Under the pieces are notes generated by a model. It was given only the letters and a program-made list of their open reading frames with translations, was not told the origin of the DNA and made no database searches. From sequence record PP239276.1: a stretch of DNA of 64,000 nt; one strand, written 5' to 3'. Position 1 is the stretch's first letter. Every line of letters starts with the position of its first letter. Below, piece after piece: positions 9,626-64,000 of this stretch. Source of the DNA: Escherichia phage BME3. The position numbers and the translations under genes are program-made.

Positions 9626-9710
9626 ATGGTAGCTAAGGTGAGACTCGAACTCACAATCCCTTGGGGCAATACGTTCTAAGCGTATCGTGTATACCATTCC
9701 ACCACTTAGC
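9626..9710 (-). tRNA. tRNA-Leu (anticodon UAG), type II
   Basis: 85 nt with long variable arm; anticodon arm ATACG/CTTAGAA/CGTAT; T-arm GTGAG/TTCGAGT/CTCAC. Confidence 0.6.
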
Positions 9711-9787
9711 CATAAAAATACACCACTGTAAGAAGCCTCAATGTGCTATTGACAGTTAACCAAGTCTACTCCTTGGATGGTGATATT

Positions 9788-9862
9788 TGGTGCAGAGAGA
9801 TGGTAACGATCCATCCTTTCTACCTTTTCAGGGTAGCACTAATCCGTCTCAGCTATCTCTGC
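9788..9862 (-). tRNA. tRNA-Phe (anticodon GAA)
   Basis: Acceptor GCAGAGA/TCTCTGC, anticodon arm CTACC/CTGAAAA/GGTAG; T-loop ATCGTTA is non-canonical. Confidence 0.5.
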
Positions 9863-9867
9863 AAATT

Positions 9868-9943
9868 TGGTCAGTGCGGCAGGACTCGAACCTGCGACCT
9901 GAAGCGTCCAAGGCTCCCACGCTACCAACTGCGCTACGCACTG
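9868..9943 (-). tRNA. tRNA-Pro (anticodon UGG)
   Basis: Perfect acceptor CAGTGCG/CGCACTG, D-arm GCGC..GCGT, anticodon arm GGAGC/CTTGGAC/GCTTC, T-arm GCAGG/TTCGAGT/CCTGC, CCA encoded. Confidence 0.7.
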
Positions 9944-9950
9944 TAAATCT

Positions 9951-10025
9951 TGGCTGGAGATCTAGGAATCGAACCTAGTCATCACGACTTCAAAGGCCGT
10001 TGCCTTCCCACTAGGCTAATCTCCA
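9951..10025 (-). tRNA. tRNA-Gln (anticodon UUG)
   Basis: Acceptor TGGAGAT/ATCTCCA, anticodon arm ACGGC/CTTTGAA/GTCGT, T-arm CTAGG/TTCGATT/CCTAG. Confidence 0.6.
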
Positions 10026-10124
10026 ATAAAACTAAAAATCACTTAAAAAGAACCGCTAGAGTTTGAAGGAGAAAACCATGAGCGAAAAGAGAAATTTTCT
10101 CTAGCGATTCCATTTAAATAATCT

Positions 10125-10199
10125 TGGAGCGAGTAACAGGACTTGAACCTGCACCTGGAGGGTGGAAACCTCATATGCTACCATTAACACTATACCCGC
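10125..10199 (-). tRNA. tRNA-Gly (anticodon UCC)
   Basis: Acceptor GCGGGTA/TACTCGC, anticodon loop TTTCCAC, T-arm GCAGG/TTCAAGT/CCTGT. Confidence 0.55.
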
Positions 10200-10254
10200 T
10201 TAACAATATTACTCTAACATATTATTAGCCCCTTTGTCAAGAGGCTTTTGATAT

Positions 10255-10584
10255 TTATTTTAAAATAGTAGATGAACCACGTCTGTTTAGATATGCAATA
10301 GTAAAGTCCAAATCACCTATTTCTTCAGGTTCCCACTGACCTTCTAAGCCATAACAAGAACAATGATATGCGTGTACTTCATAAAACAAAGATGTTTTCA
10401 TATCATAAAAATAAACGTGAGATTCACCTTCATAATATGCACAATCATAAGTGGCAGAAAGAATTACAATGTTATCCTTATCTAACTCTACTTCATAATA
10501 TCTTTCAACATCTTCAATATGATCAAAACCATCGAAAACATTGATATTAAAATATTTCTCTAACTCTTTTTCTGTCACATACAC
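10255..10584 (-). CDS. hypothetical protein embedded in tRNA cluster
   Basis: 109-aa ORF with GTG start preceded by AAGGAG RBS; Cys/Tyr/His-rich; no recognisable motif. Confidence 0.5.
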   Translation of the reverse strand: MYVTEKELEKYFNINVFDGFDHIEDVERYYEVELDKDNIVILSATYDCAYYEGESHVYFYDMKTSLFYEVHAYHCSCYGLEGQWEPEEIGDLDFTIAYLNRRGSSTILK

Positions 10585-10601
10585 TCCTTTAGAGTTAAAA
10601 T

Positions 10602-10676
10602 TGGTGCTCCCACAAGGACTCGAACCCTGATAAGTTGCTTACAAGGCAACCGTAATAGCCGTTATACGATAGGAGC
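10602..10676 (-). tRNA. tRNA-Thr (anticodon UGU)
   Basis: Acceptor GCTCCTA/TGGGAGC, anticodon arm GTTGC/CTTGTAA/GCAAC, T-arm CAGGG/TTCGAGT/CCTTG. Confidence 0.65.
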
Positions 10677-10682
10677 AATACT

Positions 10683-10759
10683 TGGACTCGACAGGATTCG
10701 ATACCTGCAATTCCAGAAGCCTCTTGGCGACTGGGGGTTTACCTTAACTCTACAAGTCC
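10683..10759 (-). tRNA. tRNA-like element (non-canonical: 8-nt T-loop, no clear anticodon arm)
   Basis: Acceptor GGACTTG/CGAGTCC and T-stem GCAGG/CCTGT enclose an 8-nt loop TATCGAAT; the interior forms a long hairpin (CCAGTCGCC-AAGA-GGCTTCTGG) rather than D/anticodon arms. Confidence 0.3.
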
Positions 10760-10766
10760 ATAATTC

Positions 10767-10851
10767 TGGCGATGGATCAAGGATTTGAACCTTGCTAGAA
10801 CTTTCGTTCACGGATTAACAGTCCGTCGCCCAACCACTAGGCCAATCCATC
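10767..10851 (-). tRNA. type II (long variable arm) tRNA with GUU (Asn) anticodon; Ser-like body
   Basis: 85 nt; acceptor GATGGAT/ATCCATC, discriminator G, 3-bp D-stem GCC/GGC, anticodon arm ACGGA/CTGTTAA/TCCGT, variable hairpin GAAC-GAAA-GTTC, canonical T-arm CAAGG/TTCAAAT/CCTTG. Confidence 0.5.
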
Positions 10852-10858
10852 TTTAATT

Positions 10859-10945
10859 TGGTGCAGGTAGTTGGACTCGAACCAACGAAGCCCAGAAGGG
10901 CAAGAGATTTACAGTCTCCAGCAATTGCCGCTATGCGATACCTAC
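10859..10945 (-). tRNA. tRNA-Tyr (anticodon GUA), type II
   Basis: 87 nt; acceptor GTAGGTA/TACCTGC, anticodon arm GGAGA/CTGTAAA/TCTCT, long variable arm, T-arm GTTGG/TTCGAGT/CCAAC. Confidence 0.6.
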
Positions 10946-10950
10946 GTGTT

Positions 10951-11026
10951 TGGTACATCGTGAAGGATTCGAACCTTCGACCTTGGAGTTAAAAGCCCCT
11001 TGCTCTACCAACTAAGCTAACGATGT
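10951..11026 (-). tRNA. tRNA-Lys (anticodon UUU)
   Basis: Perfect acceptor ACATCGT/ACGATGT, D-arm GCTT-AGTTGGTA-GAGC, anticodon loop CTTTTAA, T-arm GAAGG/TTCGAAT/CCTTC. Confidence 0.65.
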
Positions 11027-11150
11027 ATAAATTATCTTTAAAATAGCCAGTGTTTGCGGCACTTGACTATGGGATATCGGTAAGATGGTGGGGCCATCTG
11101 CCGAAAGTTTACTCTGTTAAAGTAAGATGACAAGCTACATTAAAGATAAC

Positions 11151-11236
11151 TTGGCGGTAGATGTAGGACTTGAACCTACACGCCGTTTCCGACGACAGTT
11201 TAGCAAACTGTTGTGGCTACCATTTCACCAATCTAC
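11151..11236 (-). tRNA. tRNA-Ser (anticodon GCU), type II
   Basis: 86 nt; acceptor GGTAGAT/ATCTACC, discriminator G, 3-bp D-stem GTG/CAC, anticodon arm ACAGT/TTGCTAA/ACTGT, long variable arm. Confidence 0.65.
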
Positions 11237-11245
11237 CGTTCTTAA

Positions 11246-11446
11246 TTATTCAAAACAACCGGAATCTTTTTGTTCTGCTTTTACCATACGAATATTTTTA
11301 CCATCTTCAGATTGTTGAAGATTAGAATACTCATAAATAACTTTATTATCTACAATCTTAACTCCGGTAACAACCTGTCCAATAGTTTTATAATTCATAA
11401 AGCTCCTAGTTGAATTTGGAGGAAGATAATGGAGTCGAACCATCAC
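11246..11446 (-). CDS. small hypothetical protein
   Basis: Track ORF overlaps tRNA-Ser(UGA) 3' end; AGGAG RBS before internal MNYKTIGQ suggests a ~50-aa product starting near 11398. Confidence 0.3.
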   Translation of the reverse strand: MMVRLHYLPPNSTRSFMNYKTIGQVVTGVKIVDNKVIYEYSNLQQSEDGKNIRMVKAEQKDSGCFE

Positions 11447-11506
11447 CGTATCGCTACAATGGGCCAGGGTTCAAACCTGGTTGCGCACCGCTGCGCCCTA
11501 CCTTCC
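11417..11506 (-). tRNA. tRNA-Ser (anticodon UGA), type II
   Basis: 90 nt; anticodon arm CCAGG/TTTGAAC/CCTGG, long variable arm, T-arm GATGG/TTCGACT/CCATT. Confidence 0.6.
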
Positions 11507-11569
11507 CGTTATCATACTTTAAATCTAACATAAAACTATGTTGCTTGTCAAGTAGTTTTTAAAACTTTT

Positions 11570-11651
11570 TGGCCGGGGTGACAGGATTCGAACCTGCATA
11601 CTCCAATTACTCGGTTAACGCCTGATTAGAAGTCAGGTGAGATACACCCCG
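11570..11651 (-). tRNA. tRNA-like element with Arg-type anticodon arm (UCU); D-arm not resolvable
   Basis: Acceptor CGGGGTG/CACCCCG and canonical T-arm; stem-loop CCTGA/CTTCTAA/TCAGG sits only 7 nt after the acceptor, followed by a 23-nt extra region. Confidence 0.35.
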
Positions 11652-11723
11652 TTTTCACAGTAACTATAACAAAAAACTAAGTAAATGTCAAGATATTTTT
11701 TACTAAATTGCTATTTAAATTGA

Positions 11724-11829
11724 AGCCTAGTTATGGAATCGAACCATATTTCGTATTTAGTTAGACAAAGCGATCTAACATATTTTTCAGGCTTTGATGG
11801 CCTCGGAATTACCAAATACCCTACCAGGC
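11724..11829 (-). tRNA. tRNA-like element (over-long, 8-nt internal loop; possible pseudo-tRNA or structured RNA)
   Basis: Canonical T-arm TATGG/TTCGATT/CCATA and 7-bp acceptor pairing spanning about 106 nt; interior contains hairpin GTTAGA-TCGCTTTG-TCTAAC instead of a canonical anticodon arm. Confidence 0.25.
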
Positions 11830-11831
11830 GT

Positions 11832-11917
11832 TGGTGCAAGTGGAGGGATTCGAACCCTCAATCATTTAAGCGTTGCGTTTTAAGCACAATGTGTATCACC
11901 AATTCCACCACACTTGC
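11832..11917 (-). tRNA. tRNA-Leu (anticodon UAA), type II
   Basis: 86 nt; perfect acceptor GCAAGTG/CACTTGC, anticodon arm TTGTG/CTTAAAA/CGCAA, long variable arm, T-arm GAGGG/TTCGAAT/CCCTC. Confidence 0.6.
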
Positions 11918-11948
11918 ATATAGGAGATGCATAGCACCTCCTTTTAAA

Positions 11949-12024
11949 TGGTGGTTCCCCAGGGTTACAATCCCTGCCCTCGACACTTATGAGGTGTGCG
12001 CTCTCGTCAGTGAGCTATGGAACC
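11949..12024 (-). tRNA. tRNA with CAU anticodon (third CAU species; Met/fMet/Ile2)
   Basis: Acceptor GGTTCCA/GGGAACC, D-arm GCTC..GAGC, anticodon arm CACAC/CTCATAA/GTGTC; T-loop ATTGTAA is non-canonical. Confidence 0.5.
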
Positions 12025-12031
12025 TTGAATA

Positions 12032-12298
12032 TTAAGCATACTGGGTCATTTCACCAGCTTCGCGTTTCTCCAGAAGAACTGTAATCAAAGCAATAGCTGC
12101 TTCTTCTTCGTGAGGAAGCCCCATTTCATCCAGAAGAGCAAGGAAGTCAATTACCAAACTTTCTGTTTTAAGGCTCACGCTACCATTTTCGTTTTCAGTA
12201 AGAACTGATTCAGGTTCAAAAATAAAGATTGCTCCACCTTTATTATCAATCAATACGTGCTTCTCAATCAATTCTTTACCATAAGTACGTTCTGTCAT
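12032..12298 (-). CDS. hypothetical protein
   Basis: 88-aa ORF with AAAGGAG RBS; acidic C-terminal half; no motif recognised. Confidence 0.5.
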   Translation of the reverse strand: MTERTYGKELIEKHVLIDNKGGAIFIFEPESVLTENENGSVSLKTESLVIDFLALLDEMGLPHEEEAAIALITVLLEKREAGEMTQYA

Positions 12299-12478
12299 AG
12301 TTTTCTCCTTTTTGTTTAACTTGTGCTTATCTTAGCAAATAACTAGCTATGTTGTCAACTAGTTTTTACAATATTTTTTCTTGATCTGTAACCTAGTGTA
12401 TAACCACATACAAAAGATACAATAGCAATAAAAACAGATAAGCCAAAAATAATTTCTGTAGACATACTGTTTCCTTAA

Positions 12479-12700
12479 TTATGTGAAATCTAATTCCTCC
12501 TCTGGTGCTGTGTAATTTAGAAGAAGATCAGTTACACTTTGATGTTGATAAACCCTTTCGGGACTGTCATCGAATGCCAAACTTGTACAAATCGAGCATA
12601 GATCCGACTCTTGAATATTACCATTCCTGTCTCTACGGGAGTGATTAGTCAAGTGTCTGTTACAGGCTCGGCAACGAAAATAAAAATTATGTTGTTTCAT
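12479..12700 (-). CDS. small zinc-ribbon protein with NrdB-like C-terminal tail
   Basis: 73 aa; CRAC...CSIC (four Cys); C-terminus ...APEEELDFT shares EEELDF with the C-terminus of the nrdB product in this window. Confidence 0.5.
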   Translation of the reverse strand: MKQHNFYFRCRACNRHLTNHSRRDRNGNIQESDLCSICTSLAFDDSPERVYQHQSVTDLLLNYTAPEEELDFT

Positions 12701-12771
12701 AAATCCTTCGTGAAGCCCATCCAGGGCAGTTATAGGCTCTCCTTACCTTAATCTTATCACGAAGTTTTTAT

Positions 12772-14505
12772 TTAGTCAACCTGGATGGTTCCCATAGTAC
12801 GAAGAACCTCTACGTCAACACGGTTGCGGATATCAGTGAATGTTTCATCACGTCCTTCTACTTGTGGTGTAATAACCTTACCATCTTTGAAGATAACTTG
12901 TAACTCATTGTCTTCATCCTGGATATCTTTAAAAGAAAGATTATCTACAAGAGAAAGATTACCATTAGTATCCTTAACAACCTTAATAAAACCTTTTGCA
13001 GAGCGTTTACCAGGATCAGTTTTAGGCTCCTTACTTACCAAAATTTCGTGTTCACCGATGATGCTACCTGTTGCTTTAACAGCAAAGCCAAAAGTATCTC
13101 GTGTATTGAACTGATAAGTATAACTACCAACACCAAATACAATATTGGAAGCAGCAAAGCCTTTCTTCTTCAGTCGGCGTAAGATTTCGTGTTCTCGTTC
13201 AACAGTAATAGAATCACCATAAATCATACCGATGTGCTGATCAAGAACCTTGTAGCCTTTTCGGTTGATAGTACCGCCAAACACTTCCCAAAGGATTTGA
13301 ATAGAACCTACTGCTTCACAATAAGGAATCTCATAAGTTTCATCAATACAATCAGCAACGCTACAATCCTGAAGAACATTGTAATACTTATTAACATCAG
13401 CCAAATGAACTACTTCAGTGGCTGTCGCAATACCATTATTTAAAAGGTCTTCATAGTTATCAAAAGATTCAACATTGTATCCTGCAACAACTTTAACCGG
13501 ATCTCCTGAATCTGGACGAATAACAAGACGACCATTTCGTGACATAATGGACTCTTTCAATTCTACCAGAATGCGAGTCAAGACAGCCCAGTAATCATAA
13601 GAATCTGCTACATATGAACAAAAACCTTCTGGAACAATTTCTTCAATATAGCGGCGAAGAAACTCTTTCTCTGCTACATAACGAAGCCCATCAACATCAT
13701 CTTTAAGATGTGGGAAATGTTTCTTCAGATCTTCAACAATAGCTCCAATGTTAGTCGTTGCTACTGAATGTTCTGTTGCCGGAATAGAACCTGCAACAAA
13801 TTGATCATAATCAATACCATAATAATCATGCACAGTTTCAATAGCCAGAATATTATCTGTTCCTGTGAAAGATGCCAAATGAGCGATACCACTCTTATAA
13901 CCATCTTCGATATTGCTTAAGCCACGTAGACTAAAATCATGACACTGGAAATTAACGTGATCAATGTTATCACACGTTGCCATCGCATACGCCATAGCGA
14001 TACGCTTATACTGAAAAGCTGCTGTGGCATTAGTCATTGTCTTCCAAGTTTCATCTGACAAGAGTGTTTCAACATAGTTAGTTAACCAAAAGAATTTTTC
14101 TAAAGTGTTATGCACAGTAAACACAGGAACACCAATAGGGCACAAAACACCTTCTGGCAGAGATCGAACTTCTAGCGGAAGATAACCTAAATCGTGCAAT
14201 TCTCCCCAACATTCAGCAGAAGGAGCAGAAGCACCTAATGCATTTTTAGACATACGATAAAATTTATTTACTGCTGCACTACGAGACATTTTAAAGAAGC
14301 TGTCCCACATAGTTACAAGAGCATCAGTAACTGCTCGACGAATACCTAAAACAATAACACCACGTGCTTCACGATCTGCATAATGTGCAAAGTTTTTATC
14401 ATTACGAGGAGTTAAATTAGAGAAAATGAGTTTTGTATTTTGGTTGTACATCTGCTTGTGACCAGGTTTATACCAATCAGTAGCAAAAGGTGCAAAAATA
14501 TTCAT
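12772..14505 (-). CDS. nadV: nicotinamide phosphoribosyltransferase-like protein (NAMPT family; NARP1 Namat-like)
   Basis: 577 aa; NAMPT hallmarks TDWYK, PEGVLCPIGVPVFTVHNT..FWLTNYVET, HDFSLRG, IRPDSGDP. Confidence 0.85.
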   Translation of the reverse strand: MNIFAPFATDWYKPGHKQMYNQNTKLIFSNLTPRNDKNFAHYADREARGVIVLGIRRAVTDALVTMWDSFFKMSRSAAVNKFYRMSKNALGASAPSAECWGELHDLGYLPLEVRSLPEGVLCPIGVPVFTVHNTLEKFFWLTNYVETLLSDETWKTMTNATAAFQYKRIAMAYAMATCDNIDHVNFQCHDFSLRGLSNIEDGYKSGIAHLASFTGTDNILAIETVHDYYGIDYDQFVAGSIPATEHSVATTNIGAIVEDLKKHFPHLKDDVDGLRYVAEKEFLRRYIEEIVPEGFCSYVADSYDYWAVLTRILVELKESIMSRNGRLVIRPDSGDPVKVVAGYNVESFDNYEDLLNNGIATATEVVHLADVNKYYNVLQDCSVADCIDETYEIPYCEAVGSIQILWEVFGGTINRKGYKVLDQHIGMIYGDSITVEREHEILRRLKKKGFAASNIVFGVGSYTYQFNTRDTFGFAVKATGSIIGEHEILVSKEPKTDPGKRSAKGFIKVVKDTNGNLSLVDNLSFKDIQDEDNELQVIFKDGKVITPQVEGRDETFTDIRNRVDVEVLRTMGTIQVD

Positions 14506-14576
14506 AGTTATGTCTCCTTGTTTGTTAGTGTGGGAGTATCTTACTAAGCATACTCCCTATTGTCAACACTTATTAT

Positions 14577-15470
14577 TTAAAAATTCCACACGTATGGAGA
14601 TACAATTTGTTGTTGCAAATCTGACTGATTCTTAACAAGAACACCGGAATCTTCTTGGATGTTATCTTCCCACACATTAAGAGAATGAATGCAGTCAAAG
14701 TGCTCACTTAACTCTTTAAGACCTTTAGAAAAGATACCGTGTGTAACATATAGCTCAATCTTACCTGCGTTACGAGCACGTAGCACTTTAGCCAATTCGA
14801 TAAAAGTTCTACCACCATCACAGATATCATCTACGATCATCAGGTTACGCTTATTGAAATCCTGTACAGAAATGTCTGTACGAACAATAGCACCTGTTGC
14901 AGTATCTCTAACCTTCTCTGCACAGAACACATCTAAAGACATTTTCTTAGATAATTTAAATATTTTCTTAAGAGCACCACCATCAGGACTAACAAGAGCA
15001 AAATTCTCCATACGTAACTTCCACTTTAAAGTTTCGTAAGCAATCTCTTCTTGAGGTATTACATAGAGTCTGTCAAACACTGCTGGAGTAACATCGCTAT
15101 GTGGATCAGCAACGATAACACGTGAGAAATTTAATGAATTAATTATAGAAGCAAATGCTTTAACTCCGAATGCTTCCCCAGGCTCACACACTCTGTCTTG
15201 TCGTGCATACGGTACATACAGCATGAGTAAATCAACACAATATGGTTTATGATATAGCATATTGTCCAATGCATTCTTAGTCATAACCAAAGTCATCAAG
15301 TCTTTAGCAGATCTTACTTCTAAAGAGAGTAAGATTCTGTCTGTAGCATGATTGAAACCTGATAGATTCGTATCTAGTTGAACATGTTGTTCTCCACCAG
15401 AGAATGTAAAGACTTTAACGTCTACATCAGTAACATAACAGTCAACACCATGTAGAATACTAACTTTCAT
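14577..15470 (-). CDS. prs: ribose-phosphate pyrophosphokinase-like protein (PRPP synthetase family; NARP1 Adps-like)
   Basis: 297 aa; Prs motifs PYARQDR, LVSPDGGA, MIVDDICDGGRT; directly upstream of the NAMPT-like gene on the same strand. Confidence 0.85.
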   Translation of the reverse strand: MKVSILHGVDCYVTDVDVKVFTFSGGEQHVQLDTNLSGFNHATDRILLSLEVRSAKDLMTLVMTKNALDNMLYHKPYCVDLLMLYVPYARQDRVCEPGEAFGVKAFASIINSLNFSRVIVADPHSDVTPAVFDRLYVIPQEEIAYETLKWKLRMENFALVSPDGGALKKIFKLSKKMSLDVFCAEKVRDTATGAIVRTDISVQDFNKRNLMIVDDICDGGRTFIELAKVLRARNAGKIELYVTHGIFSKGLKELSEHFDCIHSLNVWEDNIQEDSGVLVKNQSDLQQQIVSPYVWNF

Positions 15471-28982: not shown

Positions 28983-28991
28983 GGAGAAATA

Positions 28992-29963
28992 ATGACAGAT
29001 TCTATTTCAGCAAAAATTATTGCACACTCTCAAACATCTGAAGGTAAGGATATTGTTACCTTTGAACTTGAATATCCTCGCATCATTCACTCTGAATTGA
29101 TGACGCATCGTTTGTTTTCTCGTAATGCTGCATCAAGTCGAGCTATCCCTGTTAAAACTCTAATTGAAATGGTACGGCAATCTCCAGCACGTCCTTATCG
29201 TTTTGGTGCTAACCAACCAGGTATGCAAGATAAAGGCACGGATCACGATGCCCTGATTGATGCAGGTTACACTGCAAAAGAATGGTGGGACTTGGCTGCG
29301 CTAAGTGCTGCACGTTTTGCAGAAGAGTTTGCCCTTGCTGGTTATCATAAACAGGTTGCAAACCGCCTACTAGAACCATTTCAGCGTATGAAGACTGTAG
29401 TAACCACTACAGAGTTAGAAAACTTCTTGTGGTTGCGCGTAGATGCTGATGCAGATCCTACTATTGAGGCTCTTGCTAAAGAAATTAAAAAACTGTATGA
29501 ATCTTCTGAACCATATCTTCTTTTCCCAGGGGAATGGCATACACCTTACGTTAATCGTGATCGAGATCCAGAAACTGGTATGATCCGTTATTTCTTGGGT
29601 GAAACCTTCTCCAACGAGAAAATGTTGACAGAAGACGAAGCAAAAGCTATTTCAGCTTCTTGTTGCGCTCAGGTAAGTTATCGTAAATTGAATGATACTA
29701 AAGATAAAGCATTAGATATCTATTCTCGTTTGCTGTCTGGACAAAAGGTACATGCATCTCCGTTTGAACACCAGGCAACGCCAATGAAAGAAATGGATCT
29801 GTCAGGATTAAAACAACAGAAAGATGGTATTAATATGCCTCCGTTCCCTTCTTCTTGGGAGGAAGGTATTACACATATGGATCGTAAACATCGTTTGTGG
29901 AGTGGAAACTTCTGTGGTTGGATTCAACATCGTCAACTTTTGACTAACCATACAAAATGGTGA
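28992..29963 (+). CDS. thyX: flavin-dependent thymidylate synthase (ThyX family)
   Basis: 323 aa; ThyX signature region ELMTHRLFSRNAASSRAIP (xHR-x7-S-SR). Confidence 0.8.
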   Translation: MTDSISAKIIAHSQTSEGKDIVTFELEYPRIIHSELMTHRLFSRNAASSRAIPVKTLIEMVRQSPARPYRFGANQPGMQDKGTDHDALIDAGYTAKEWWDLAALSAARFAEEFALAGYHKQVANRLLEPFQRMKTVVTTTELENFLWLRVDADADPTIEALAKEIKKLYESSEPYLLFPGEWHTPYVNRDRDPETGMIRYFLGETFSNEKMLTEDEAKAISASCCAQVSYRKLNDTKDKALDIYSRLLSGQKVHASPFEHQATPMKEMDLSGLKQQKDGINMPPFPSSWEEGITHMDRKHRLWSGNFCGWIQHRQLLTNHTKW

Positions 29964-35311: not shown

Positions 35312-35522
35312 GGAGGATAGTAGAATGATGCTAGATCGACTGATCAATGCTCCTCGCGTAACAGTAAGTCCAAAAACATTTGCATCACTTTTAGAAGATG
35401 CTAGAGAGGTTTATAACTTTACTGAAGAAGAGATTCCTGTTCCTGTTGAAAAAGGTTCCAGATGGTTGTTTTATGAAGGTATTATTTTTACTGAAGGGAA
35501 TAATTGGAAGGAGACTAAATGA
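35232..35522 (+). CDS. hypothetical protein
   Basis: AAGGAGG RBS before internal MMLDRLINAPR near 35326; ~65 aa; directly upstream of rfbB. Confidence 0.4.
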   Translation: MQKKPTHNFLKNITLKRKLLFLNTFGKEDSRMMLDRLINAPRVTVSPKTFASLLEDAREVYNFTEEEIPVPVEKGSRWLFYEGIIFTEGNNWKETK

Positions 35523-36508
35523 AATACTTAGTAACAGGTGGTTTAGGCTTTATTGGAAGTGCAGTAGTTCGTTTCCTGGCTAAAAATACTAAGAATGATA
35601 TTTACGTTATAGATAAATGGGGTTACGCTTCAGACCCTAGAAATTTATCAGAAACACCTAATGTAAAGTTTTGTCGTGTTGACTTGACAAATGCTCAGTT
35701 AACTGCTAAGATTGTGGCAGATGTTAATCCAGATTATATAATGCATCTTGCAGCAGAAAGTCACGTAGATAATTCAATAGCATCACCGAGTGTTTTTATA
35801 AATTCAAATATTGTTGGAACATTTAATCTTCTAGAAGCTGTTCGTTTAATGGGAGATAAATCAAATCTTAAAATGTTTCATCATATTTCAACAGATGAAG
35901 TGTATGGTGATATGGAAGAAGGGGATTATCCGTTTACAGAACAGAATCCTTATAAGCCAAGTAGTCCATATGCTGCATCTAAAGCTGCAAGCGATCATTT
36001 GGTAAGAGCGTGGCATCGTACTTATGGTATTCCGACAGTTATAACAAATTGTTCAAATAATTTTGGAGCATATCATCATCCAGAAAAACTAATACCTAAA
36101 ACGATAACAAATATCTTAATGCATAAACCAATCCCTGTTTATGGTAATGGTCTTCAAGTAAGAGACTGGTTATACGTTGACGATCACGCAGAGGCATTAC
36201 ACCTAGTAGTAACTAAAGGCAAATCTGGAGAAACATATAATATTGGGAGCAGAAACCCTAGAACTAATATTGATGTAATCTATATGATTTGTGATTATAT
36301 GGATGCGGTATATCCATCTGAAACAGATGCTTGTAGCCTCATTGAGATGGTTACAGATAGGCCTGGGCATGATCTAAGATATGAAGTGAATCCTTATAAG
36401 ATTGAAAAGGAATTAGGGTGGAAAGCTAAAGGCACATTTGAAGAAAAACTTTATTCAACCATTGATTGGTATGTAGATAACAAAGAGTGGTGGGAAAATA
36501 AAGTTTAA
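35519..36508 (+). CDS. rfbB: dTDP-glucose 4,6-dehydratase
   Basis: 329 aa; SDR extended family: N-terminal [12 protein letters not shown] Rossmann motif, catalytic YAASKAASD (YxxxK). Confidence 0.9.
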
Positions 36509-36516
36509 GGAGGAGT

Positions 36517-37386
36517 ATGAAAGGTATTATCTTAGCAGGTGGTAGTGGAACAAGACTTTACCCAGTTACTAAAGGGGTTAGTAAACAACTATTACCAATT
36601 TACGATAAACCTATGATTTATTATCCACTCTCTGTCCTAATGCTTTCTGGAATTAGGGAAATACTAATAATTACAACACCAGAAGATCAAATTAATTTTG
36701 TAAATCTTCTAGGTGATGGTTCTTCTTTTGGTATTTCCCTACAGTATGCAATACAGGATAGCCCAAAAGGTTTAGCAGAAGCGTTTATTATTGGTGAGAA
36801 CTTTATTGGTGAAGATTCTGTAGCACTTGTGCTAGGTGATAATTTATTCTTTGGTCAGAGTTTTGGTAGCATTTTAGATTCTGCTAAAGAACATATTGAA
36901 AAGAATGGTGGAGCTAATATTTTTGGGTATCACGTAAATGATCCTGAAAGATTTGGTGTTGTTGAGTTTGATTCTGAAGGTACAGTGGTGAGTATTGAAG
37001 AAAAACCAAAAGCACCAAAAAGCAACTATGCAATTACAGGCTTGTACTTTTACGATAATTCTGTTATACAGAAAGCTAAGAGCGTTAAACCTTCTGCTAG
37101 AGGGGAGTTAGAGATTACAGATATAAATGAGATGTACTGGAAAGAAAAGACTTTACGTGTCTGTAAACTAGGAAGAGGTTTCACTTGGCTGGATACAGGA
37201 ACACATGAAAGTCTTATGGAAGCATCTCAATTTGTTCATGCGATAGAAAAGCAACAAGGTATGAAGGTTGCATGCCTAGAGGAGATTGCTTTTAAAAATG
37301 AATGGATTACTTTAGACTCTGTAAAAAGTTCTGGAGAGGTTTTAAGTAAAACAGACTACGGTAAGTATTTACTTAAATTAAAATAA
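36517..37386 (+). CDS. rfbA: glucose-1-phosphate thymidylyltransferase
   Basis: 289 aa; [18 protein letters not shown]...[16 protein letters not shown] signature of RmlA. Confidence 0.9.
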
Positions 37387-37398
37387 AGGGGGAATTAA

Positions 37399-37953
37399 AT
37401 GATTCAAGCAACAAAAATCGAAGATTTGTTGATCATTCAACCTGACGTTTACGGAGATGAACGTGGCTTTTTCTTAGAAAGTTTTAATCAGGCTTTATAT
37501 GATCAATACATAGGTAAACAAAACTTTGTCCAGGATAACCACTCACGTTCTATTCGAGGAGTTCTACGTGGGCTTCATTTTCAAAAGAAAAACCCACAAG
37601 GGAAGTTAGTACGTTGTGTTCGTGGTGAAGTTTATGATGTTGCTGTAGATATTAGGGTTGGTAGTCCAACATTTGGAGAATGGGTAGGTGTTCTCTTATC
37701 TGAAAAGAATAAAACACAATTTTGGATTCCTCCTGGTTTCGCTCATGGCTTTGTTGTGATTAGCGACATTGCTGATTTTGAATATAAATGTACAGAATAT
37801 TACGATCCGACTTCAGAGTGTAGTCTTGCGTGGAATGATCCAGATATCAATATAGATTGGGGTTTTGATTTAATCTTTAATGATATTAATTTTAAACCTA
37901 TCTTGTCACAAAAAGATCAGCAAGCCAAAACACTAAAGGAGATCATATTTTGA
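37399..37953 (+). CDS. rfbC: dTDP-4-dehydrorhamnose 3,5-epimerase
   Basis: 184 aa; cupin RmlC motifs DERGFFLESFN, RGLHFQ, FWIPPGFAHGF. Confidence 0.85.
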   Translation: MIQATKIEDLLIIQPDVYGDERGFFLESFNQALYDQYIGKQNFVQDNHSRSIRGVLRGLHFQKKNPQGKLVRCVRGEVYDVAVDIRVGSPTFGEWVGVLLSEKNKTQFWIPPGFAHGFVVISDIADFEYKCTEYYDPTSECSLAWNDPDINIDWGFDLIFNDINFKPILSQKDQQAKTLKEIIF

Positions 37954-38780
37954 CAAAATTTTTAATCTTTGGTTCAAAAGGTCAATTAGGACAGTCTTTG
38001 GCAAAAGTTGCGCCCGAAGATGTTATTTTGATTGAAGCAAGTGATGTAGACATTACCAACTTTAAAGATGTTATGAATAGTCTTGTACAGCATGTACCTG
38101 ATGTTGTTGTGAATTGTGCGGCTTACACGGCAGTAGATAAAGCTGAAGAAGATGTTAACACCTGTATAAATGTTAATGCATACGGTGCAACAAACATTGC
38201 CAAAGCATGTAATGATTTACTGATACAGTTTGTACATATTTCAACAGACTATGTTTTTGATGGGCATGTCGCTGGCACAGAAGATAGTAAAACAAACCCC
38301 TTGAACACCTATGGTTACAGTAAACAATTAGGTGAAACTTTAGTACAAACAGTTTGTCCTACAGCACTTATTATCAGAACAGCTTCTGTTTATAGTGAGT
38401 TTGGACATAACTTTTTGAAAACTATGTTGGAACGCTACAACGGTGGTCAAAAAGAATTTAATGTAGTATGTGATCATTTATCATGTCCTACTTATGCACC
38501 TGATCTGGCAGAAACAATTTTTAAACTTGTAAAAGATGGTGTAAATAGTAAAATTGTACACTATGCAGGTGCAGATTATATTTCTTGGTATGATTTTGCA
38601 CGAAAGATATTTCTTGTTATAGATTTATCTGTTACAGTTAATCCTGTATCTGCTTCAACCTATAATTCTAAAGCAGTCAGACCAGCAACATCTTATTTAA
38701 AAACAGATCCTACTTTAAATCCGCGAAGTGTTGATAGCGGTATTGTAAGAACTTTAACTATACTTTTAAACAAGGAGTGA
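37950..38780 (+). CDS. rfbD: dTDP-4-dehydrorhamnose reductase
   Basis: 276 aa; N-terminal FGSKGQLGQ Rossmann motif, SDR-like YGYSK, operon position after rfbC (4-nt overlap). Confidence 0.75.
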   Translation: MTKFLIFGSKGQLGQSLAKVAPEDVILIEASDVDITNFKDVMNSLVQHVPDVVVNCAAYTAVDKAEEDVNTCINVNAYGATNIAKACNDLLIQFVHISTDYVFDGHVAGTEDSKTNPLNTYGYSKQLGETLVQTVCPTALIIRTASVYSEFGHNFLKTMLERYNGGQKEFNVVCDHLSCPTYAPDLAETIFKLVKDGVNSKIVHYAGADYISWYDFARKIFLVIDLSVTVNPVSASTYNSKAVRPATSYLKTDPTLNPRSVDSGIVRTLTILLNKE

Positions 38781-39043
38781 AAATGAATTTTATTATCTAC
38801 GGTAAACCAAATTGTCCTTTCTGCACTAACGCTAAAATTCTGCTAGAACAGCGTGAACAGGATTTTAAATACCTTACCTTAGATGAAGACTATTCTTTAG
38901 ATCAGATTCAGAATCTGGTTTTAGAGAAAACAGGTGTTCTGCCACGTACCTTTCCTCAAATTTTTGTGGAAGATGGTGAACATCTAACCCACGTAGGAGG
39001 TTTTTCTGAACTACGTGAATTCATGGCTCAGATTGCGGAGTAA
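38777..39043 (+). CDS. glutaredoxin
   Basis: 88 aa; thioredoxin-fold active site YGKPNCPFC near N-terminus; likely RNR reductant. Confidence 0.7.
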   Translation: MKMNFIIYGKPNCPFCTNAKILLEQREQDFKYLTLDEDYSLDQIQNLVLEKTGVLPRTFPQIFVEDGEHLTHVGGFSELREFMAQIAE

Positions 39044-47442: not shown

Positions 47443-47856
47443 ATGTACTATAGCGACTATTTTGTAAACCCAACAAAAGAACAACTTCAATCAGCAGTGG
47501 ATAAGATGCAGATTGTAGTTAAAGAATGTGAGAAAATAAGAAAACAACTACAAGAGGAGACTGTTGTTGTTAATAAATGGTTTGGTCTTAGGAAGAAAGT
47601 TGTTAGCAAACACAATATCATCCTTGAAAAAGCAAAAACGACAGGAACTAGTTATGCCTTACAAGCCTTGTTACTAAATTACATTGATATAGAACAACAT
47701 TCTCTTCTGCACTGTTGGCTTAACAGCCCTGGTATTGAGGATCTCTTGTTCTGGTTATCGTGTGAATCTGTACTTTTAAATGAGAATGAGGCTTACCGTT
47801 TAAACTTCTGCCTCAAGGTAGAGTTACCAGCTAGTGTTAAGGAGAAGAAGCAATAA
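47443..47856 (+). CDS. hypothetical protein
   Basis: 137-aa ORF immediately upstream of the C5-methyltransferase gene. Confidence 0.5.
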   Translation: MYYSDYFVNPTKEQLQSAVDKMQIVVKECEKIRKQLQEETVVVNKWFGLRKKVVSKHNIILEKAKTTGTSYALQALLLNYIDIEQHSLLHCWLNSPGIEDLLFWLSCESVLLNENEAYRLNFCLKVELPASVKEKKQ

Positions 47857-48845
47857 TGAAAGTTTTAAGTCTTTTTGATGGTATGTCAGGAGGAATGCTT
47901 GCACTAAAAAGTGCAGGTATTGAAGTAGATACATATTATGCTTCAGAATTAGACAAATTTGCCATAGCTGAAAGCCAAGCAAATTTTCCAGATATTATTC
48001 AGTTAGGTGATGTTACAAAATGGAGAGAATGGGATATCCCGTGGGGAGAAATTGATCTTTTGTTAGGTGGTAGTCCGTGTCAAGGCTTCTCTTCTTCTGG
48101 TAAGGGTTTGAACTTTCAAGATCCGCGATCTAAACTGTTCTTTGAATATGTTGAAATTCTTGAACATATTAAAAAGTTTAACCCTAATGTTAAGTTCATG
48201 CTTGAGAACGTTAAGATGAAGGTGGAGTGGGAAAACGTGATCACAAGTTACTTAGGTGTTGATCCCGTATTCATTAACTCCGCAGATTTCACGGCACAGA
48301 ATAGACAACGTTTATACTGGTGCAACTGGGAAATAAAACCTTGGGAGATTACCAATGAAGTGTTGCAAGATATCATTGAAGATGATAGTATTGTAGACAG
48401 AGATAAGGCTTATTGCATAGATGCAAATTATGCCAAAGGTGGTAATATAGAACAGTATTTTGAAAAGAGTCGCAGACAACTTGTTTTTTATCCGGCAGCA
48501 ATATATGGGCGTAGAATTAATGAAAATGGCAAACGTAGTACATCTAAAACTGATCGTTTGGTACATTGTTTGGAAGTTCAGGACAGTGAAAAAACTCGTT
48601 GCCTCACAACTGTACCTAAAGACGTACTATTAGCCTACATTCCACCTGGAAGATATCTAGATGCCTTTGAAAAATTGAGTGAAGGCGTACATTATAGAAA
48701 ATTAACGGTTAGAGAGTGTTGCCGCTTGCAAGGTGTGCCAGATGACTACTTTAAGGTAAGTAGTAACACACAAGCATATAAGATGTTAGGTAACGGTTGG
48801 ACTATACCTGTCATTGCACATATTCTTAAATGTATGGAGGAATAG
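47856..48845 (+). CDS. DNA cytosine-5 methyltransferase
   Basis: 329 aa; motif I LSLFDGMSGG, motif IV GGSPCQGFS, motif VI ENV, C-terminal motifs; classic C5-MTase order. Confidence 0.85.
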   Translation: MKVLSLFDGMSGGMLALKSAGIEVDTYYASELDKFAIAESQANFPDIIQLGDVTKWREWDIPWGEIDLLLGGSPCQGFSSSGKGLNFQDPRSKLFFEYVEILEHIKKFNPNVKFMLENVKMKVEWENVITSYLGVDPVFINSADFTAQNRQRLYWCNWEIKPWEITNEVLQDIIEDDSIVDRDKAYCIDANYAKGGNIEQYFEKSRRQLVFYPAAIYGRRINENGKRSTSKTDRLVHCLEVQDSEKTRCLTTVPKDVLLAYIPPGRYLDAFEKLSEGVHYRKLTVRECCRLQGVPDDYFKVSSNTQAYKMLGNGWTIPVIAHILKCMEE

Positions 48846-49631: not shown

Positions 49632-50165
49632 ATGGGTTTTGATGATATGTTATTATATGAGGAGGCTTGTGTGAAAGAAGCTATGGCTTTACCAGTTTTA
49701 TCTATTGATATTACAACAGTAGACACTTTTTCAGATTGTGAAACGTGTGGATCGTATTCGTCTATTGTACATGAAGTCAGTGGTGATTTAGGCACTTACG
49801 AAGATGGAGATTATGCAAGTTGTTTAGGTGATAATCTAGATGGTGAAGTGGTGAATGTTGCAAACTGGATTGCTTCTAAGTTAAAAGAAAGAAATCGTCC
49901 GTTCCCTAATCTTCTTACACCAGAAGCTATGCTTAAAGCTGAACAAGAGATGTATGATTATGGTTATAAAGTAGATTATGACTATAATGATCCTAAATAT
50001 AAAAAATTGAGTGACAAGTATTGGGAACTAGCTAACGCTTATGATAAATACTACTCTACAGAAAACATTGTTAAATTGTTTTTAGATTTTGGAGTAGAAA
50101 TTAATTGGGATTTCGAAGAGGAAGAGCGTTACGACGCATCTTCTTGGGAGGACGAGGGTGAATGA
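49632..50165 (+). CDS. hypothetical acidic protein
   Basis: 177-aa ORF with GGAGG RBS. Confidence 0.5.
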   Translation: MGFDDMLLYEEACVKEAMALPVLSIDITTVDTFSDCETCGSYSSIVHEVSGDLGTYEDGDYASCLGDNLDGEVVNVANWIASKLKERNRPFPNLLTPEAMLKAEQEMYDYGYKVDYDYNDPKYKKLSDKYWELANAYDKYYSTENIVKLFLDFGVEINWDFEEEERYDASSWEDEGE

Positions 50166-50902
50166 TAGAACGAAAACCCTTACCAGATAGAGATTACTTG
50201 TTATCAAGGTTTAGTGTGGAGAATGGTCGTCTTGTTTGGAAACCTAAACCTTCTACAACAAAAGAGAACAAAAGGTGGAATAGCAGATACGCAGGGAAGA
50301 TTGCAGGGACTATTGATAAAGTTGGTTACTCTCATGTCAAAATAGATGGTATTGTATACTTGGAGCACAGAATTTGTTTTAAAATGTATCATAATTACTG
50401 TCCAGATGTTATAGACCATGACGACGGCAATAAACTTAATAATGCGGAAAGTAATTTGTTGGATAGTAACTATTTATTAAATAATAACAATAGACACGTG
50501 GATGGGTTAGAAGGTATTTATGAAAAGGATGGTGTTTTTCTTTGGGTTATAAACTACAACCAAGAAACTTTCTCTGTTTCAGGTTTCAAAACTAAAGAGG
50601 AAGCTATTGTAGCTAGAGCTTTAGCAAAACAAGAAATTTTGAAAGGATCTTATATCAAAAAAGAAAAGAAGCGTATAGATAACACTTCAGGATTAAGCTG
50701 TGTGTTTGTGGCGACAAGAGAGAGAACATTCTTTTTCAAGTTTGTGTTTGACAAGACCACGTATTGCAAATATGGTTTCAACGATCCAGAGAGATGTGCT
50801 ATAGCTCTGGAGAAGCTAAGATTAAAGGTGATGAAAGAAAAATATAAACCTGCAAATAAAAGCATTTGCGAAAAATATAAGGAGGAGATTTATGCCGCGT
50901 AG
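50162..50902 (+). CDS. HNH homing endonuclease (HNH plus AP2-like DNA-binding region)
   Basis: 246 aa; HVKIDGIVYLEHRICF...IDHDDGNKLNNAESNL HNH core; C-terminal basic region. Confidence 0.6.
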   Translation: MIERKPLPDRDYLLSRFSVENGRLVWKPKPSTTKENKRWNSRYAGKIAGTIDKVGYSHVKIDGIVYLEHRICFKMYHNYCPDVIDHDDGNKLNNAESNLLDSNYLLNNNNRHVDGLEGIYEKDGVFLWVINYNQETFSVSGFKTKEEAIVARALAKQEILKGSYIKKEKKRIDNTSGLSCVFVATRERTFFFKFVFDKTTYCKYGFNDPERCAIALEKLRLKVMKEKYKPANKSICEKYKEEIYAA

Positions 50903-51707
50903 AGTCATATTCATAACTGGCGCAGGACTATCTGTGGATAGCGGTATCCCAGCTTTTAGAACAGATACTTCTTCAGGGGAGGCGTTATGGTCTTCTTATG
51001 ATCTTTCTGAGGTCTGTAATATTTTCAACTTCCGTGACGGTTATCAGCAAGAACAAGGTGTTCTTGATGCTATGGGTGGTTTAGATGCGGAAGGATATAA
51101 CCTCTACCGTAAAACTCACGACTTTTACAATAAACGTCGCGTGGAATTAGAGAAAGTTGACCCGAATCCAGCACATCTTCAGATTGGAGAATGGTTCAAA
51201 AAATATGGCCCAGAACGAATTATTAACATTACTACTAACGTAGATGACCTCCTTGAACGAGCAGGAGTAGATAGGGAAGAAGTGCTACATGTGCACGGTT
51301 TTCTTCCTGAAATTACTTTTCAAAGAAAAGCTGGACAACCTACAATTGTAAAAGATGTTGGTTATCAAGCCATAGATGTAGATGACTACCATTATGTAAA
51401 ACCTAATGTAATTTTCTTTGGGGAAGCTGCTCCACTTTACACAGATATGTATCATATTTTTGATACACTGACGGCTCAAGATTTGGTTGTAGTAGTAGGA
51501 TGTTCAAACCAAGTTATCAATTTTAATTGGGAATTATTCCCTGCACTTAATATGGGTACAAAAATGATCGTTGTTAACCCAGGAATTAATTACGAAGAAA
51601 CTCTTCTTTACGAAGATAGAGGAGTCTTTGTTTATAGAGAAAAGGCAGCAGATGCTTTTAGCAATCCTGCTTTCATAAAAATGATAGAAGATCATTTGAC
51701 TAAATAA
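50892..51707 (+). CDS. Sir2-family (sirtuin-like) protein lacking zinc-binding module
   Basis: 271 aa; ITGAGLSVDSGIPAFR, TTNVDDLLERAG, HVHG, FFGE, VVVGCS sirtuin core motifs; no CxxC...CxxC zinc module. Confidence 0.7.
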   Translation: MPRRVIFITGAGLSVDSGIPAFRTDTSSGEALWSSYDLSEVCNIFNFRDGYQQEQGVLDAMGGLDAEGYNLYRKTHDFYNKRRVELEKVDPNPAHLQIGEWFKKYGPERIINITTNVDDLLERAGVDREEVLHVHGFLPEITFQRKAGQPTIVKDVGYQAIDVDDYHYVKPNVIFFGEAAPLYTDMYHIFDTLTAQDLVVVVGCSNQVINFNWELFPALNMGTKMIVVNPGINYEETLLYEDRGVFVYREKAADAFSNPAFIKMIEDHLTK

Positions 51708-62721: not shown

Positions 62722-63139
62722 ACCCCCTTTTCATAAGCGTAAAGTCAATAATATCAATAACTTGCCGCAAAATACTGCTCGCTTGCGAGAGGTGCTTAAC
62801 GCGATTTTCAGCGCCCCCCGATTTCTGCCGACCGTCCCCCTCAAATATCAATGAGAATAATTATCATTTGCATTATCATTCAATGACTTATAAGACTTTT
62901 GATTATTTTCTGAGCGAAAAAGGTGCTACTCACAACAAAACAGATAAATTCTAAGTAAATCAATGACTTGGCAAGTCTAAACATCTATATACACCTTGCC
63001 AAATGAAATGATCCTGCGTGAAATAGTGCTACCCGTGGAAGATAGCTGATAATGATTATCATTTGCATATTTTCTATACTATAAAACGCCCTAAAAATCA
63101 AGATAATTCTACTTTATTGCGCTTTTAAGAAAGTAGGCT
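62722..63139. repeat. direct repeat copy 1 (~417 bp)
   Basis: Near-identical to 63584..64000 (about 3 mismatches, all near the 5' end); contains inverted repeat TTGGCAAG-N21-CTTGCCAA and hairpin CTCGC-TTG-CGAG. Confidence 0.8.
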
Positions 63140-63583: not shown

Positions 63584-64000
63584 CACCCTTTTCATAATCG
63601 TAAAGTCAATAATATCAAAAACTTGACGCAAAATACTGCTCGCTTGCGAGAGGTGCTTAACGCGATTTTCAGCGCCCCCCGATTTCTGCCGACCGTCCCC
63701 CTCAAATATCAATGAGAATAATTATCATTTGCATTATCATTCAATGACTTATAAGACTTTTGATTATTTTCTGAGCGAAAAAGGTGCTACTCACAACAAA
63801 ACAGATAAATTCTAAGTAAATCAATGACTTGGCAAGTCTAAACATCTATATACACCTTGCCAAATGAAATGATCCTGCGTGAAATAGTGCTACCCGTGGA
63901 AGATAGCTGATAATGATTATCATTTGCATATTTTCTATACTATAAAACGCCCTAAAAATCAAGATAATTCTACTTTATTGCGCTTTTAAGAAAGTAGGCT
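63584..64000. repeat. direct repeat copy 2 (truncated by window end)
   Basis: Matches 62722..63139 base-for-base over its visible length apart from ~3 substitutions; may extend beyond the window. Confidence 0.8.

Follow-up and report, generated by a model that had tools for sequence, protein, structure and literature searches.

Gene content of the rml locus

Positions 35519-38780 of the 64,000-nucleotide (nt) stretch of Escherichia phage BME3 DNA analyzed here (sequence record PP239276.1; hereafter, the window) hold four consecutive plus-strand genes predicted to encode the synthesis of dTDP-L-rhamnose: (i) rmlB, for dTDP-glucose 4,6-dehydratase (35519-36508, 329 amino acids (aa)), (ii) rmlA, for glucose-1-phosphate thymidylyltransferase (36517-37386, 289 aa), (iii) rmlC, for dTDP-4-dehydrorhamnose 3,5-epimerase (37399-37953, 184 aa), and (iv) rmlD, for dTDP-4-dehydrorhamnose reductase (37950-38780, 276 aa, with a TTG start). 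Gene identity was judged by the curated NCBIfam equivalog cut-offs, which all four proteins exceed: RmlB scores 441.7 bits against TIGR01181 (cut-off 365.1), RmlA 472.4 bits against TIGR01207 (360.65), RmlC 260.4 bits against TIGR01221 (155.75), and RmlD 254 bits against TIGR01214 (224.05). The profile hidden Markov model (HMM) search proposed in the initial annotation also gave matches for every family named there, namely PF16363/PF01370 for RmlB, PF00483 for RmlA, PF00908 for RmlC, and PF04321 for RmlD. The expected motifs are in place as well. RmlB has the GxxGxxG motif, T-D-E triad, and YxxxK motif (seen as YAASK) of extended short-chain dehydrogenases/reductases (SDRs), RmlA has GGSGTRL at residue 8, in agreement with the GGxGTRL pattern, RmlC contains HFQ, and RmlD contains STDYV and YGYSK, corresponding to STDYVF and YxxxK. 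By profile and motif, the four genes are thus confirmed as genuine, and the complete rmlB-rmlA-rmlC-rmlD pathway claimed in the initial annotation stands.

The Rml proteins align lengthwise with solved enterobacterial and Gram-positive Rml enzymes. The best solved relatives of RmlA are S. enterica RmlA (1IIM, 419 bits) and E. coli RmlA and RffH (~412 bits), residues 4-159 of RmlC align with S. enterica RmlC (1DZR, 218 bits) with the RGLHFQ segment included, and RmlD aligns with the solved RmlD 3SC6 (154 bits) with conservation of STDYVF and YGxSK.

Gaps of 8 nt and 12 nt separate rmlB from rmlA and rmlA from rmlC, respectively, rmlC and rmlD overlap by 4 nt, the TTG start of rmlD lying on the rmlC stop codon, and Shine-Dalgarno sequences accompany the junctions. 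Another 4-nt overlap joins the rmlD stop codon to a glutaredoxin-like gene (38777-39043, plus strand; PF00462, 47.3 bits). Because of these short gaps, overlaps, and Shine-Dalgarno sequences, the rml genes are predicted to form an intact, translationally coupled operon. The glutaredoxin-like gene, found downstream of the rml clusters of phages phAPEC8 and anhysbys as well, appears to be a conserved neighbor that may lie outside the pathway. A promoter and terminator scan around the operon gave sites no more numerous than in shuffled sequence and no plus-strand terminator; therefore, the borders of the transcription unit were not placed.

Genomic setting and phage identity

The rml cluster is preceded by tdk, thyX, nrdA, nrdB, and a few small open reading frames (ORFs), and followed by the glutaredoxin gene, a T4-type phage lysozyme gene (PF00959), and phoH. 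The initial annotation had described this setting and had linked the dTTP consumed by RmlA to the neighboring ribonucleotide reductase (RNR), ThyX, and Tdk; the former is as described and the latter was judged correct.

The 3.26-kb rml segment is 95-99% identical at the nucleotide level to 55 records, nearly all of them from Justusliebigvirus (phi92-like phages, Stephanstirmvirinae), and most of these records already annotate the four rml genes in GenBank. Compared with phage Antha, the whole window shows 95-99% identity except for short gaps and two divergent stretches, covering Antha positions 96,660-145,329 and then 1-15,440. By this similarity, the window belongs to a further isolate of Justusliebigvirus. 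Across Justusliebigvirus and Phapecoctavirus, RmlA and RmlC share 63-77% amino-acid identity, and all four Rml enzymes are under purifying selection in the two genera.

The enterobacterial-type similarity of RmlA and RmlC, and nothing further, would agree with the cluster being host DNA or part of a chimeric assembly, which the initial annotation had named as an alternative. The GC content is 0.35 in the cluster and its flanks with no break at either border, the closest phages are nearly identical over the window as described above, and the same synteny recurs in over 120 phage genomes sequenced independently of one another. Since the synteny is that widespread, in addition to the flat GC content, we reject a chimera or host contamination; its probability is negligible.

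Glycosyltransferase genes outside the window

The initial annotation had noted that no glycosyltransferase is visible in the window. This is literally true, but it results from the position of the window's end: close relatives with 97-99% nucleotide identity carry a block of four glycosyltransferase genes, which in Antha (PP925826, 57,459-60,635) are consecutive, annotated as such, and located about 36 kb before the window start. The search outside the window that the initial annotation had proposed thus found candidates both in Antha and in phAPEC8 (NC_020079, 109618-112765), where the same block occurs and both clusters occupy matching neighborhoods. In Antha, the block lies between the endolysin gene and the genes for primase/helicase and DNA polymerase I, and the genome annotation lists no further glycosyltransferase beyond it.

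The first protein of the block, GT1 (187 aa), matches only glycosyltransferase PHROGs and has a GT-A or GT-A-like assignment. GT2 is predicted to have a GT-A fold and carries a DXD motif. GT3 (337 aa) and GT4 (314 aa) are GT-B paralogs with 41% identity. None of the four has a predicted transmembrane segment, the best 19-residue Kyte-Doolittle window being not above 1.21. Sequence searches of GT2 and GT4 against solved structures gave no matches. Fold searches returned generic GT-A and GT-B enzymes and did not tell acceptor types apart; the GT4 fold resembles WlaC, PglA, PimA, and WaaG, which act on lipid-linked or membrane acceptors. Matches to the TAGT family (PF20691) were obtained for 11 of 17 family members, all below threshold, with a best score of 23.3 bits against the gathering score of 27.5.

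Antha also has, immediately before the endolysin gene and the glycosyltransferase block, a Ter-like cluster (~46-56 kb) that encodes a ComF-like phosphoribosyltransferase, a phosphatase, a TelA-like protein (annotated as tellurite resistance), a vWA-TerF-like protein, and TerD. A comparable juxtaposition of TerC, TelA, vWA-TerF, and TerD was observed in a distant metagenomic relative.

Distribution of the rml and glycosyltransferase genes

Searches with tblastn in 50,697 phage records gave closely similar distributions for the two gene sets. RmlC gave matches in 105 records under Escherichia, 8 under Klebsiella, 5 under "Campylobacter", and 3 each under Justusliebigvirus and Phapecoctavirus. 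For GT2 and GT4, the corresponding numbers are 106 (Escherichia), 9-10 (Klebsiella), 5 ("Campylobacter"), and again 3 for each of the two genus names. The total of 106 for Escherichia agrees with the sum of 45 Justusliebigvirus and 61 Phapecoctavirus records obtained by megablast; therefore, the related rV5-like phages lack both clusters. The five "Campylobacter phage" records (MG065645 A145, MG065656 C3, and three others; host C. jejuni) share ~99% identity with these coliphages in both the rml and the glycosyltransferase genes. Probably their host was mislabeled, or else the phage was a contaminant.

The phAPEC8 rml cluster matches 71 Phapecoctavirus records, 46 of which cover it fully and ~25 of which keep only rmlD and rmlC. 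In anhysbys (NC_052656, 82462-91873), rmlB and rmlA are cleanly deleted and rmlC and rmlD are kept. The glycosyltransferase block is complete in all 71 records. Alone, RmlC and RmlD can only convert dTDP-4-keto-6-deoxyglucose to dTDP-L-rhamnose. This substrate is made in every E. coli strain by RffH and RffG for the enterobacterial common antigen (ECA), and RmlC and RmlD are present in only some E. coli strains. Because the variants with rmlC and rmlD only could draw on the RffH/RffG product of the host, the selected product would be the rhamnose donor rather than the consumption of dTTP.

In distant metagenomic relatives, an SDR with dTDP-glucose 4,6-dehydratase as its best match (171-193 bits, below the cut-off) is encoded beside or within the block of GT2-like and GT4-like genes, upstream of primase/helicase. 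Among 30 viral and bacterial loci with the glycosyltransferase pair described below, no Rml genes were found within 10 kb of the pair except for an RmlB-like SDR in one locus. As a hypothesis from gene content, we propose that rmlC, rmlD, and the four glycosyltransferase genes form the conserved core of the system, with rmlA and rmlB being dispensable.

The GT-A/GT-B pair in other phages

A pair of GT2-like and GT3-like genes was found in IMG/VR contigs and in lambdoid prophages of Pseudomonas chromosomes, with 42-45% identity to the coliphage proteins. In the prophages, the terminase, portal, and head genes follow directly after the pair, which is flanked by an ORF with the Ig-like domain Big_2 on one side and by genes for a metallopeptidase, DUF2280 (TerS-like), TerL, and the portal protein on the other; its slot is bounded by the nin region (NinG) and the terminase genes. 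GT-A/GT-B pairs also occur in phage contigs with GC contents from 0.32 to 0.62, and the pair thus appears to be a widespread cassette. Its breadth favors an acceptor that many phages have in common (a protein of the phage, or DNA) rather than an envelope glycan specific to the host. The slot of the pair in prophages is also typical of lysogenic-conversion genes, and this weighs the other way. In Burkholderia, a GT4 homolog adjoins an invasin-like gene, which is uninformative.

Proposed function and candidate acceptors

In the established rhamnose pathway, the four enzymes act in the order RmlA, RmlB, RmlC, and RmlD. In the infected cell, RmlA would join glucose 1-phosphate to dTTP, RmlB would dehydrate the product to dTDP-4-keto-6-deoxy-D-glucose, RmlC would epimerize this intermediate, and RmlD would then reduce it to dTDP-L-rhamnose. 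We propose that the rml operon is the sugar-donor half of a two-part phage glycosylation system, in which GT1, GT2, GT3, and GT4 would be the transferase half; with its own rml genes, the phage would not depend on the O-antigen type of its host. We consider it most likely, with a probability of about 0.6, that the operon supplies the donor for such a phage-encoded system, because the distributions of the two gene sets match, rmlB and rmlA are lost in some phages, an RmlB-like gene neighbors the glycosyltransferases in relatives, and no other consumer is annotated. This reading, drawn from comparative genomics, is supported but not proven. Protein (of the virion or other) and lipid-linked glycan remain the leading acceptor candidates, and bulk DNA is unlikely. 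More tentatively, the operon and the glycosyltransferase block may constitute a self-contained pathway from sugar nucleotide to glycan, which would attach a rhamnose-containing oligosaccharide to a phage-intrinsic acceptor (virion proteins or specific DNA sites); its GT-A/GT-B core would then be mobile, a cassette also present in Pseudomonas prophages and in phages of low-GC hosts.

The initial annotation had left three acceptors open, namely a host surface glycan, a virion protein, and DNA. The four glycosyltransferases could build a rhamnose-containing glycan on capsid, tail, or fiber proteins, for example to shield or stabilize the virion, and we regard this more specific form of the two-part system as possible but less than even. 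The enzymes are soluble, the Pseudomonas prophage pair is located immediately before the terminase, portal, and head genes and beside the Big_2 protein, and the occurrence of the pair in phages of hosts with such different GC contents (0.32-0.62) suggests an acceptor supplied by the phage. Among phages, GT2 has distant relatives only in cluster F mycobacteriophages, whose glycosyltransferases match it with 25-27% identity (E ~1e-7), and according to PMC11256854 the capsids of the cluster F1 phages Che8 and Rita are glycosylated. However, GT2 has no significant similarity to Che8 gp108-110 (blastp E >=0.24; 6.6 bits or less with the family HMM), and homology to these virion-glycosylation enzymes was dropped as a candidate, leaving unspecified cluster F glycosyltransferases as distant relatives. 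The literature found on these phages is also silent on glycosyltransferases and virion glycans, and the prophage position of the pair is at the same time a usual site of lysogenic conversion. That position, between NinG and the terminase genes, would also fit remodeling of the host envelope. In this case, phage glycosyltransferases working on undecaprenyl-linked intermediates, or else transferases of the host, would use dTDP-rhamnose to change lipopolysaccharide (LPS), O-antigen, ECA, or other surface glycans and so block superinfection or the adsorption of progeny to debris. The phages recognize surface glycans via many tailspikes, and the similarity of the GT4 fold to enzymes with lipid-linked or membrane acceptors points in the same direction. 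Nevertheless, neither the Antha annotation nor the hydropathy of the four glycosyltransferases revealed the components of Gtr-type seroconversion, that is, a GtrA flippase, a GtrB-like bactoprenol glycosyltransferase, or a polytopic or otherwise membrane-anchored glycosyltransferase; the same pair is found in phages whose very different hosts have differing envelope glycans, and we found no account of these lytic phages converting the host surface. We therefore consider envelope remodeling rather unlikely.

The least supported of the three acceptors is DNA. Following an idea of Olsen et al. 2020, rhamnose or a rhamnose-containing glycan could be placed on hydroxymethylated or otherwise activated bases of the phage DNA. 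This is doubtful given that phi92-like phages were described as "exceptionally susceptible" to restriction-modification (PMC8594841; PMC10844046) and that all TAGT matches fall below the Pfam gathering score. Neither the Antha annotation nor Pfam scans of 28 unannotated proteins revealed a ThyA-type hydroxymethylase or a TET/JBP enzyme, the 30 related viral and bacterial loci have no C5-methyltransferase gene within 10 kb of the pair, and bulk base replacement is improbable for lambdoid prophages, in which the pair is also present. The phi92-like phages are not mentioned in three papers where their DNA composition could have been described, namely the Durham collection DNA-modification paper, the glycosylated 5-hydroxycytosine paper, and the END nuclease preprint. 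Sparse, site-specific modification may still be compatible with the evidence, because the genome encodes a C5-cytosine DNA methyltransferase (window 47850-48842; PF00145, 152 bits) and a divergent ThyX. The latter, a putative 323-aa enzyme annotated as "thymidylate synthase" (window ~28990-29960; Antha 125359-126330), matches the Pfam Thy1 profile partially with 37 bits. Relatives encode an N6/N4 methyltransferase, and their annotation lists further DNA methyltransferases, a Dam-like N6-adenine enzyme included, despite the reported restriction sensitivity. Finally, the operon could have a purely metabolic role without any phage transferase, acting as a buffer or drain for dTTP or diverting dTDP-4-keto-6-deoxyglucose from ECA or O-antigen synthesis. 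Such a role would suit an operon that adjoins the RNR, ThyX, and Tdk genes and whose RmlA uses dTTP, as established biochemically. We find it improbable, as the common variants with rmlC and rmlD only cannot consume dTTP, all four enzymes are under purifying selection across two genera, and such a role would not account for the closely matching distribution of the glycosyltransferases.

Comparison with known systems

The rfb/rml operons of Enterobacteriaceae (RmlA-D of S. enterica and E. coli; RffH/RffG) encode the same four enzymes with the same motifs and include the best solved relatives of the phage proteins. In contrast to these operons, the phage cluster has the order B-A-C-D, resides in the nucleotide-metabolism module of a virulent phage instead of an O-antigen locus, and has no adjacent polymerase, flippase, or rhamnosyltransferase gene.

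Soluble transferases of the GT-A and GT-B types, encoded by phages near replication genes, are likewise a feature of T-even DNA glucosylation and of the clusters combining a methyltransferase (MT), 5mYOX (TET), and a glycosyltransferase (GT) (bioRxiv 10.1101/2023.12.21.572611). The glycosyltransferases considered here show weak similarity to TAGT and the glucosyl-hydroxymethylcytosine (glucosyl-HMC) transferase, as well as structural similarity to the T4 alpha- and beta-glucosyltransferases. In contrast to those systems, the searches revealed no partner enzyme of the hydroxymethylase or dioxygenase type, the scores against the family models stay under threshold, and the phages are sensitive to restriction. 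In addition, T-even and MT-5mYOX-GT systems use UDP-sugars of the host and have no dTDP-sugar pathway of their own, whereas phi92-like phages carry one.

According to PMC11256854, which summarizes Freeman et al. 2023, mycobacteriophages of clusters F, O, and C have glycosylated virions. Like in our phages, the glycosyltransferase genes of mycobacteriophages lie outside the structural module, and GT2 has distant homologs among the cluster F enzymes. The two systems differ in that no significant similarity to Che8 gp108-110 was found, the host here is Gram-negative, and the virion glycan of the present phages is putative.

Other features of the window

A cluster of 16 tRNA genes, three tRNA-Met(CAT) among them, is located on the minus strand at 9147-12024. 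It is followed on the same strand by a NAD-salvage pair, the genes for nicotinamide phosphoribosyltransferase and ribose-phosphate pyrophosphokinase (~12772-15470, mapped from the Antha annotation). An extra ORF of 246 aa (50162-50902), inserted just upstream of a SIR2-family gene (50892-51707), gives a weak HNH endonuclease match of 21.6 bits, below the gathering score. Because of this match and because the stretch does not align with Antha, the ORF is probably a homing-endonuclease insertion. A direct repeat of 300 nt with 99% identity (62725-63024 and 63586-63885, spacing 861 nt) lies in an array of small minus-strand ORFs, and both copies align to a single Antha segment.

Previous reports and implications

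The initial annotation had called the cluster an unexplained feature. It is not an unreported one: the rml cluster of Justusliebigvirus and Phapecoctavirus phages is already annotated in GenBank and discussed in the literature (PMC7552041, PMC8594841, PMC10844046), the DNA interpretation included. Olsen et al. 2020 (PMC7552041) noted the cluster, Maffei et al. 2021 (PMC8594841) described "a putative dTDP glycosylation machinery", and both raised DNA glycosylation as a possibility. Maffei et al. also reported the restriction-modification susceptibility quoted above, and a 2024 paper (PMC10844046) repeated both statements. The cluster in the window has the same genes, order, and neighbors as the published phi92-like and phAPEC8-like clusters, with no material difference from them. 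Overall, the observation made in the initial annotation is confirmed, and its interpretation is partly supported.

The new elements are the four-glycosyltransferase block, its RmlC-like distribution, the losses of rmlB and rmlA, and the RmlB-like dehydratase within the glycosyltransferase block of distant relatives; we found no paper that ties the four glycosyltransferase genes to the rml operon. The rhamnose pathway itself is ordinary biochemistry that had been reported before, and the interest lies in the acceptor. The present analysis narrows this question to a testable system of rmlC, rmlD, and four glycosyltransferase genes, for which natural rmlAB-deletion variants are available for comparison. 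If it is indeed a self-contained rhamnose-glycan pathway, no earlier example would have been shown in a coliphage. The host range of phi92-like and phAPEC8-like phages ranks with the broadest among coliphages, and therapy cocktails make use of them; if their virions are coated, or their DNA is marked, with a rhamnose glycan, then immune recognition, stability, host range, or defense evasion could change.

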